A DNA stretch of 64,000 bases. Origin: Octopus vulgaris. Its lineage: Eukaryota. Location: assembly GCA_951406725.2 (NCBI GenBank), contig OX597830.1, positions 66,836,001 through 66,900,000 on the forward strand. The letters run 5' to 3'. The translations under genes were made by a program, and so were the position numbers. The notes beneath the pieces were generated by a model, which was given only the letters and a program-made list of their open reading frames with translations, did not search any database and was not told where the DNA came from. Shown here one piece after another: positions 1,630-2,075 of the stretch; position 1 is the stretch's first letter, and every line of letters begins with the position of its first letter.

Positions 1630-1821
1630 GATAGATCGTTAGCTCCTACACGCATTTTTTTCTCTCCTTGTTTTTTTTCTGTGTATCTTTCTGTCGAAGA
1701 GCATAGGCTCGAAACGTAAAAGACTTGTTTTATTTCTATTCCTGAGTGCCATACTAATACATTTGTTTGTTTGTACTCCACCTGCCTTCGTCTTTTGTTT
1801 ATTTTCGTAAACCTTCCCGTT
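1630..1821 (+). mobile_element. Short (TA)n-embedded repeat with hammerhead-like motif (Penelope-like/retrozyme-like), type 1
   Basis: TCTTT-CTGTCGA-A-GAGC-ATAG-GCTC-GAAACGTA-AAAGA at 1686-1723. Partial inverted copy at 27638-27744. Confidence 0.55.
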
Positions 1822-1871
1822 ATATATATATATATATATATATATATATATATATATATAATAATAATAAT

Positions 1872-2075
1872 ATGTGACCTCACGAGTACCACTGGCGATT
1901 TTAATCCTCTGTCTTCCCTTCTCAGGATCTTTCCTTCTCCTATGTTTCCGACGAAGAGCTCTGCTCGAAATGTTAAACCCTCCTTCTTCCCTTCTTTCCT
2001 GAGCGTCCAATAATACTTTATTTGTTCCACGTCCTTGCGTTGTTGTGTTTTTTTGTTTTCTTGTTTGGATTAACT
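1872..2075 (+). mobile_element. Short (TA)n-embedded repeat with hammerhead-like motif, type 2
   Basis: GTTT-CCGACGA-A-GAGC-TCT-GCTC-GAAATGTT-AAAC at 1944-1978. Inverted copy at 33941-34148. Confidence 0.6.

Follow-up and report, generated by a model that had tools for sequence, protein, structure and literature searches.

The closest described counterparts of the motifs reported here are the minimal hammerhead ribozymes in the pseudo-LTRs (pLTRs) of Penelope-like elements (PLEs). These carry an extra nucleotide, occur mostly as solo copies and have low activity as dimers (PMC4209133). In all 56 rows of Fig. S3 of that publication, positions 4 and 6 are U and A, the underlying descriptor having required these boxes. 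For a green anole PLE, it has been reported that reverse transcription begins 111-118 nt inside the ORF and that the hammerhead cuts at +26, is protein-assisted and can be dispensed with for insertion in vitro (PMC11167929). Natural deviations from the canonical core are described as well, i.e., A6C in phage Bcep176 and U4C in a viroid, both with low activity, and the A6C variant favours Mn2+ (PMC3088659, PMC7151607). In a saturation mutagenesis of another hammerhead, every single change in CUGA led to low activity (PMC9901934). Retrozymes are reported to be tandem (PMC7229834; bioRxiv 10.64898/2026.07.22.740005). In Octopus vulgaris, PLEs account for 6.83% of the genome and comprise 190 families (PMC13282606).

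The stretch analysed here, termed the window in the following, comprises 64,000 nucleotides of O. vulgaris DNA. It is repeat-rich eukaryotic DNA, dense in microsatellites. Two neighbouring repeats, r1 and r2, are listed in Table 1 together with their further copies. A preliminary description had presented the two as tandem repeats. They are in fact neighbours from two different dispersed families, with about 73% local identity over 84 nt, and do not form a tandem array.

Table 1 Features of r1 and r2, their copies and (TA)n surroundings in the window, and of contig L021 (coordinates of that contig)
Feature	Position	Strand	Remarks
(TA)n run	1595..1628	.	upstream of r1
Repeat 1 (r1)	1629..1820	+	~190-bp element flanked by (TA)n runs; likely the pLTR part of a Penelope-like family
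r1 minimal type I hammerhead layout	1686..1723	+	core CUGU-N-GA, with U6; cut predicted after 1718
Downstream motif common to r1 and r2, r1 instance	1739..1760	+
(TA)20 run	1821..1860	.	separates r1 from r2
Repeat 2 (r2)	1861..2074	+	~200-bp element flanked by (TA)n runs; homology with second r2 copy from position 1873 or earlier
Possible distal 7-bp helix in r2	1921-1927 with 1997-2003	+	A-U replaced by G.U in second copy, pairing kept
r2 minimal type I hammerhead layout	1944..1978	+	core CCGA-C-GA, with C4; cut predicted after 1974
Downstream motif common to r1 and r2, r2 instance	1996..2016	+
(TA)50 run	2075..2175	.	downstream of r2
r1 copy, 3' part only	27640..27747	-	83% identical; begins inside helix II; ends at (TA)n
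Second r2 copy, solo	33944..34146	-	90% identical; C4 core again; ACGU palindrome intact; (TA)n on either side
L021, hammerhead and broken PLE C-terminal region	1909-1948 and 2036-2765	- and -

The hammerhead-like layout proposed for both repeats is borne out by the sequence. In r1, helix I consists of TCTTT (1686-1690) and AAAGA (1719-1723) and encloses the core CTGTCGA (1691-1697), an extra A (1698), helix II with its loop (GAGC-ATAG-GCTC, 1699-1710) and GAAACGTA (1711-1718). The corresponding elements of r2 are GTTT (1944-1947) and AAAC (1975-1978) for helix I, the core CCGACGA (1948-1954), an extra A, GAGC-TCT-GCTC and GAAATGTT, which ends at 1974. Note that position 15.2 of r2 (1971) is a T and gives a U.G wobble, while the second r2 copy has a C and thus a C-G pair. 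Both motifs possess helix I, helix II, the GAAA...UH box, a palindromic 15.2-16.2 stretch without loop 3, the extra nucleotide that separates position 9 from 10.1 and the G10.1-C11.1 pair. A canonical CUGANGA core, or its version with the U3-A8 swap, is absent: r1 has U6 and r2 has C4, the latter in both r2 copies of the window. The covariation previously noted for helix I comes down to a single pair, C-G in one repeat and G-C in the other (A-U in the contig L021 described below). Its score was reached by 49 of 500 shuffles with n=4 sequences and is not significant. The downstream motif said to be common to both repeats was found again (Table 1). In r2 it is able to pair with 1921-1927, and the resulting distal helix would close loop 1; a clear counterpart was not found in r1.

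Both strands of the window were scanned with a descriptor that was designed post hoc, once the motif was known, and that combined a helix I of at least 3 bp, the seven-letter core with at most one mismatch, an optional extra base, a helix II starting with G-C, GAAA, a self-complementary 15.1-16.1 stretch and H17. It matched three sites in the 64 kb (C3 at 1691 and 1948 on the plus strand and at 34067 on the minus strand), compared with a mean of 0.005 matches per window in 200 block-wise dinucleotide shuffles, where the maximum was one and no shuffle reached two. A perfect core was not found by the descriptor on either strand. Comparison with Rfam, which had been put forward as a check, returned no hammerhead among the six matches at E<=10 for positions 1628-2078, and none among the best 150 of 353 rows for the whole window. 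The silence of Rfam, the position of both cores outside the canonical consensus and the post hoc design of the descriptor are what a chance resemblance in an ordinary repeat has in its favour. This explanation is close to refuted and we give it hardly any weight, as the layout is kept in two diverged families, none of the shuffles contained two or more matches, N7 alone varies in the core and L021 exists. The motifs are confirmed as a real feature.

Further repeats surround these elements. Directly 5' of r1 lies a third TA-bounded segment (1381-1520), which is single-copy in the window. Its minus strand (about 1455-1418) contains, between complementary arms of 5 nt, a decayed hammerhead-like arrangement that has several core mismatches and was missed by the descriptor. 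This segment may represent a third end of PLE type. A further repeat, flanked by TA and U-rich at its 3' end, is present in two copies of 78% identity (938-1260, minus strand, and 48583-48981, plus strand), and the descriptor found no hammerhead in it. The SINE-like repeats of the window resemble those of octopus. An inverted duplication within one of them has created a long near-perfect hairpin (684-818) that gives spurious Rfam miRNA matches, and a SINE-like repeat that is unrelated to r1 abuts the 3' strand of helix II in the partial r1 copy at 27747-27750, a possible truncation or deletion junction. A 13-bp satellite with 382 copies and 89% matches (49143-54111) is the source of long spurious open frames, and minisatellites are present at 20762-21073 (period about 48 bp) and 58901-59866 (period about 117 bp). 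By their look, we take the frames 22017-22724 (+), 47011-47400 (-) and 21329-21628 (+) to be remnants of RTE-type, CR1-type and mariner-type transposons, respectively; Pfam assigned none of the three to a significant family.

The claimed resemblance to the minimal type I hammerheads of PLEs agrees with the consensus given in Fig. S3 of PMC4209133. Type I topology, a U-rich flank, a helix I of 4-5 bp, an extra nucleotide after A9, the G10.1-C11.1 pair, the absence of loop 3, the palindromic ACGU and the occurrence as solo dispersed copies are common to the published metazoan motifs (Cervera and De la Pena 2014, PMC4209133) and to r1 and r2. Differences reside in U6 of r1 and C4 of r2, where the published rows have A6 and U4, in the lack of a cephalopod among these rows, and in the lack of an ORF linked to r1 or r2. 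The row for Acropora digitifera in the same figure, a PLE of the Neptune clade, comes close to identity in size and shape, with a 4-bp helix II ending in GCUC and a 4-nt loop. Neptune-clade PLEs are also biased towards insertion into microsatellites (cited in Craig et al. 2021, PMC8557442). However, the Acropora core is canonical, and r1 and r2 are known without a protein and hence without a clade. Naiads likewise target (TA)n, but lack canonical hammerheads. The Poseidon element PAc of the green anole (Frangieh et al. 2024, PMC11167929) has its hammerhead about 85-92 nt upstream of a fixed start of reverse transcription that defines where copies end, and inserts into AT-rich targets, all reminiscent of r1 and r2. 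In the published account of PAc this start lies in an AC-rich stem-loop, whereas the corresponding region of r1 and r2 is U-rich. The natural core variants (PMC3088659, PMC7151607) share with r1 and r2 a single change in the uridine turn, and U4C is the very change seen in r2; as described there they are rare single ribozymes, whereas A6U in r1 belongs to a high-copy animal repeat family. As far as sequence can tell, r1 and r2 may work like the known PLE pLTR hammerheads, yet they are not canonical members, because their cores deviate and no ORF is linked to them.

Sequencing runs provided insight into the variability of r1. The stretch or part of it is present in 20 of the 24 runs listed, across four organism codes and nine studies. 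Alignment covered r1 (192 of 446 bases) in four of the 24 runs, with 80% likeness as the threshold and differences listed from 4%. r1 is a high-copy, variable and dispersed family: 2901 contigs aligned in set X8, 13875 in X5 and 5678 in X9 (organisms A, C and D, respectively). X8 is putative RNA and served as sequence evidence only. Depth was summed over short overlapping contigs and is therefore a crude measure and not a copy number. The three contig sets contain all four letters at position 7 (1695), with A at 17-18%, G at 5-9%, T at 30-48% and C at 28-42%, while A at position 6 accounts for 0.09, 0.51 and 0.33% of the depth. Position 7 aside, none of the 23 positions of core, helix II and helix III has an alternative letter at 4% or more in any of the three sets. 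Loop 2 position 1703 is mostly G in the contigs, and the outer positions of helix I vary (1686 at 6-14%, 1722 at 3-5%). Set against the flanks, where 12 of 107 sites are variable, the 0 of 23 sites in the motif do not differ significantly (Fisher p=0.086). Summed contig depth peaks over the hammerhead motif, and contig matches break at 1687/1688 and 1726, i.e., at or just beyond the edges of helix I, hundreds of times in X5 and X9 and with 55 cases at 1726 in X8. As matches stop at these edges, the r1 subfamilies appear to have little in common except the ribozyme motif.

Of the non-canonical cores pointed out earlier, U6, which prevails in the contigs, is thus a family trait and not private decay, and C4, which recurs in both window copies of r2, would be one as well. 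Within the hammerhead core, no position but 7 is free to vary, and the pattern in the contigs is therefore the signature expected of a constrained ribozyme core, here with a substitution at position 6. Two other accounts of the r1 core were considered and rejected. Decay of CpG as the origin of the variation at N7 conflicts with the occurrence of A and G at this site and with G8, which is unaffected even though it follows a C. Shifting the r1 register by 3 nt to regain A6 would place the four-letter site on the conserved position 4 and break helix II. A different picture emerged from the raw reads of X22, a run that is nearly devoid of the r1 family despite a species label identical to that of the best-matching run: in 1934 million letters, only 12 reads matched r1, all less than 90% alike. 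The five reads that cover position 6 all have A (two start places, 14 other differences), and from these reads it follows that a distant relative of r1 with a canonical core exists.

A (TA)n run directly ends all four copies in the window, in full agreement with the microsatellite setting noted before; the chance is about 0.009 for each copy, this being the window-wide probability that a random position falls no more than 5 nt away from one. The four copies have 102, 100, 94 and 99 nt between H17 and the (TA)n run that follows, and the three copies that have C3 show 68-94 nt between it and the upstream (TA)n run. Ribozyme-bounded elements, as proposed, would look different: with a predicted cut 94-102 nt inside the 3' end in four of four copies, the cut is internal, the elements are not bounded by ribozymes and their 3' end is fixed at about 100 nt past the cut. 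A fixed 3' end downstream of the hammerhead and an AT-rich or microsatellite target, as in PLEs, are both present. Of the partial tandems or inverted, 5'-truncated copies with a 30-40 bp tail by which PLEs are also recognised, X5 alone offered candidates, one joint between opposite strands and one contig in head-to-tail order.

These findings also bear on the earlier reading of r1 and r2 as non-LTR retrozymes or other ribozyme-bounded elements, in which tandem units would be cut to monomers, circularised and reinserted. The unit size of about 200 nt fits, as does the head-to-tail contig of X5, which joins 1800 back to 1629, and PLE pLTRs have been proposed as the origin of retrozymes (bioRxiv 10.64898/2026.07.22.740005). 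Metazoan retrozymes as described in PMC7229834 resemble r1 and r2 in being short non-coding repeats with type I hammerheads. However, retrozymes form tandem arrays, their type I hammerheads are canonical and they have circular RNAs, whereas the window copies are dispersed monomers of different families with minimal variant cores and with ends that do not match the cut site. Neither head-to-tail tandem units nor a canonical type I hammerhead (no perfect core, no Rfam hammerhead) were found in the window, and we consider the retrozyme reading very improbable.

A linked Penelope RT/GIY-YIG reading frame, the further check suggested at the outset, was not found in the 64-kb window. The best tblastn match with 150 PLE-type queries had an E value of 0.009, and a PLE profile built from the 18 longest proteins reached 0.74 at best. 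The same PLE-type proteins match L021, a plant-metagenome contig from another organism, at E 3e-26. This contig was retrieved by a pattern that prescribed nothing but helix II, the GAAA box and the extra A, with positions 3-7 and the 5' arm left free. The metagenome scan gave 19 matches, and L021 was the only one with a hammerhead core and helix I; the other 18 were dropped as chance, because their flanks show no hammerhead core with helix I. No match was obtained in prokaryote genomes, and the two in viral contigs lacked core or helix I (none with the U6 pattern). The L021 core is canonical (CUGAAGA), helix I comprises 4 bp and helix II 6 bp, and 91 nt separate C3 from the stop codon of a broken ORF upstream. 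An exhaustive search detected 3035 relatives of this ORF at E<=0.001, which match at the C-termini and are proteins of ~800 aa. In the seven long relatives scanned, RVT_1 was found in six and GIY-YIG in four, which is the PLE architecture. Nothing significant came from a word-index search that used the peptide of L021 (35 candidates), from Pfam or NCBIfam when the L021 fragments were submitted by themselves, or from a protein search with the r2 plus-strand frame (seven candidates). By analogy, r1 and r2 would belong to PLEs as well.

Alternatively, a PLE-like hammerhead may have been acquired by a different retroelement that targets microsatellites, of the R4/Dong, RTE or SINE type, and r1 and r2 would be its ends or short derivatives. 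The failure to find a PLE ORF for either family in the window is compatible with this, and so are the fusion of one r1 fragment to a SINE-like repeat and the nearly equal, SINE-like ends of the two r2 copies. However, the SINE junction cuts helix II and looks like a truncation or deletion, all architectural features agree with the minimal hammerheads of PLEs, and the sole look-alike outside the window, L021, sits behind a PLE ORF. We regard such an origin as improbable.

Folding predictions did not set the motifs apart from shuffled sequences (z 0.15, -0.88 and -0.75), and the double-hammerhead dimer was predicted to be less stable than other dimers (-12.7 vs -17.6, -1.4 vs -20.3 and -5.7 vs -22.5 kcal/mol). 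Given these energies, which disfavour the active fold, and the harm that a change at position 6 does to other hammerheads, r1 and r2 would cleave slowly if at all, and probably with the help of a protein. According to the main rival to a working ribozyme, r1 and r2 are PLE ends with catalytically dead hammerheads, and the fold is kept as a protein-binding or a promoter or splicing element, or simply via a few master copies. Not only is the active dimer not the favoured fold and A6 sensitive to change (PMC3088659, PMC9901934), but the anole PLE also inserts normally in vitro with a dead hammerhead (PMC11167929), and canonical hammerheads are wholly absent from some PLE clades. On the other hand, the four-letter position 7 with its fixed neighbours and the breaks at the edges of helix I point to several master copies, all with the core retained, and natural A6C and U4C ribozymes retain low but real activity. 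A dead but conserved fold appears unlikely, while deserving more weight than any of the other alternatives.

We consider it probable that r1 and r2 are the pseudo-LTR ends of two related Penelope-like families whose hammerheads, each with one core change, would cut only slowly, as dimers and with the help of the element's protein. Following published work on PLEs, a full-length element located elsewhere would encode the GIY-YIG/RT protein and nick TA-rich DNA. Reverse transcription would be primed inside the element, at a fixed site some 100 nt 3' of the hammerhead, and mostly ~200 nt would be copied, owing either to early truncation or to a short non-autonomous template; the near-identical ends of r2 lead us to lean towards the latter. 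Two RNAs would pair through the ACGU palindrome and thereby build helix III. Master copies would be under selection to keep G5, C3-G8, G12, A13, A14 and A15.1-U16.1, and would have tolerated change at the uridine-turn positions 4 and 6. This tolerance suggests that fast cleavage is not needed.

Much of this picture is already known. As a kind of element, r1 and r2 are not new: microsatellite-biased PLEs with hammerheads in their pLTRs are published, as are the extra A as a hallmark and the U4C core. The new point is the family-wide A6U core only. A published report of a family-wide A6U hammerhead was not found, with the proviso that Lünse et al. 2017, the largest survey of such motifs, lay outside the comparison and may contain one. 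PLE hammerheads are poor cutters and, in the one element tested, protein-dependent and dispensable for insertion in vitro (PMC11167929). With its high copy number despite a normally damaging core change, and with N7 alone varying, r1 lends itself as a natural test of whether cleavage or the fold is the target of selection. Descriptor searches that require CUGANGA overlook whole families of this kind. More tentatively, and as less likely than not, a high-copy animal Penelope family may have fixed A6U, i.e., a CUGU turn, with all catalytic nucleotides under selection, as a natural core variant that functions only under the control of the protein of the element or of a particular metal ion. If this is true, CUGU-type cores would be invisible to CUGANGA searches, and PLE families reported to be without hammerheads may carry them.
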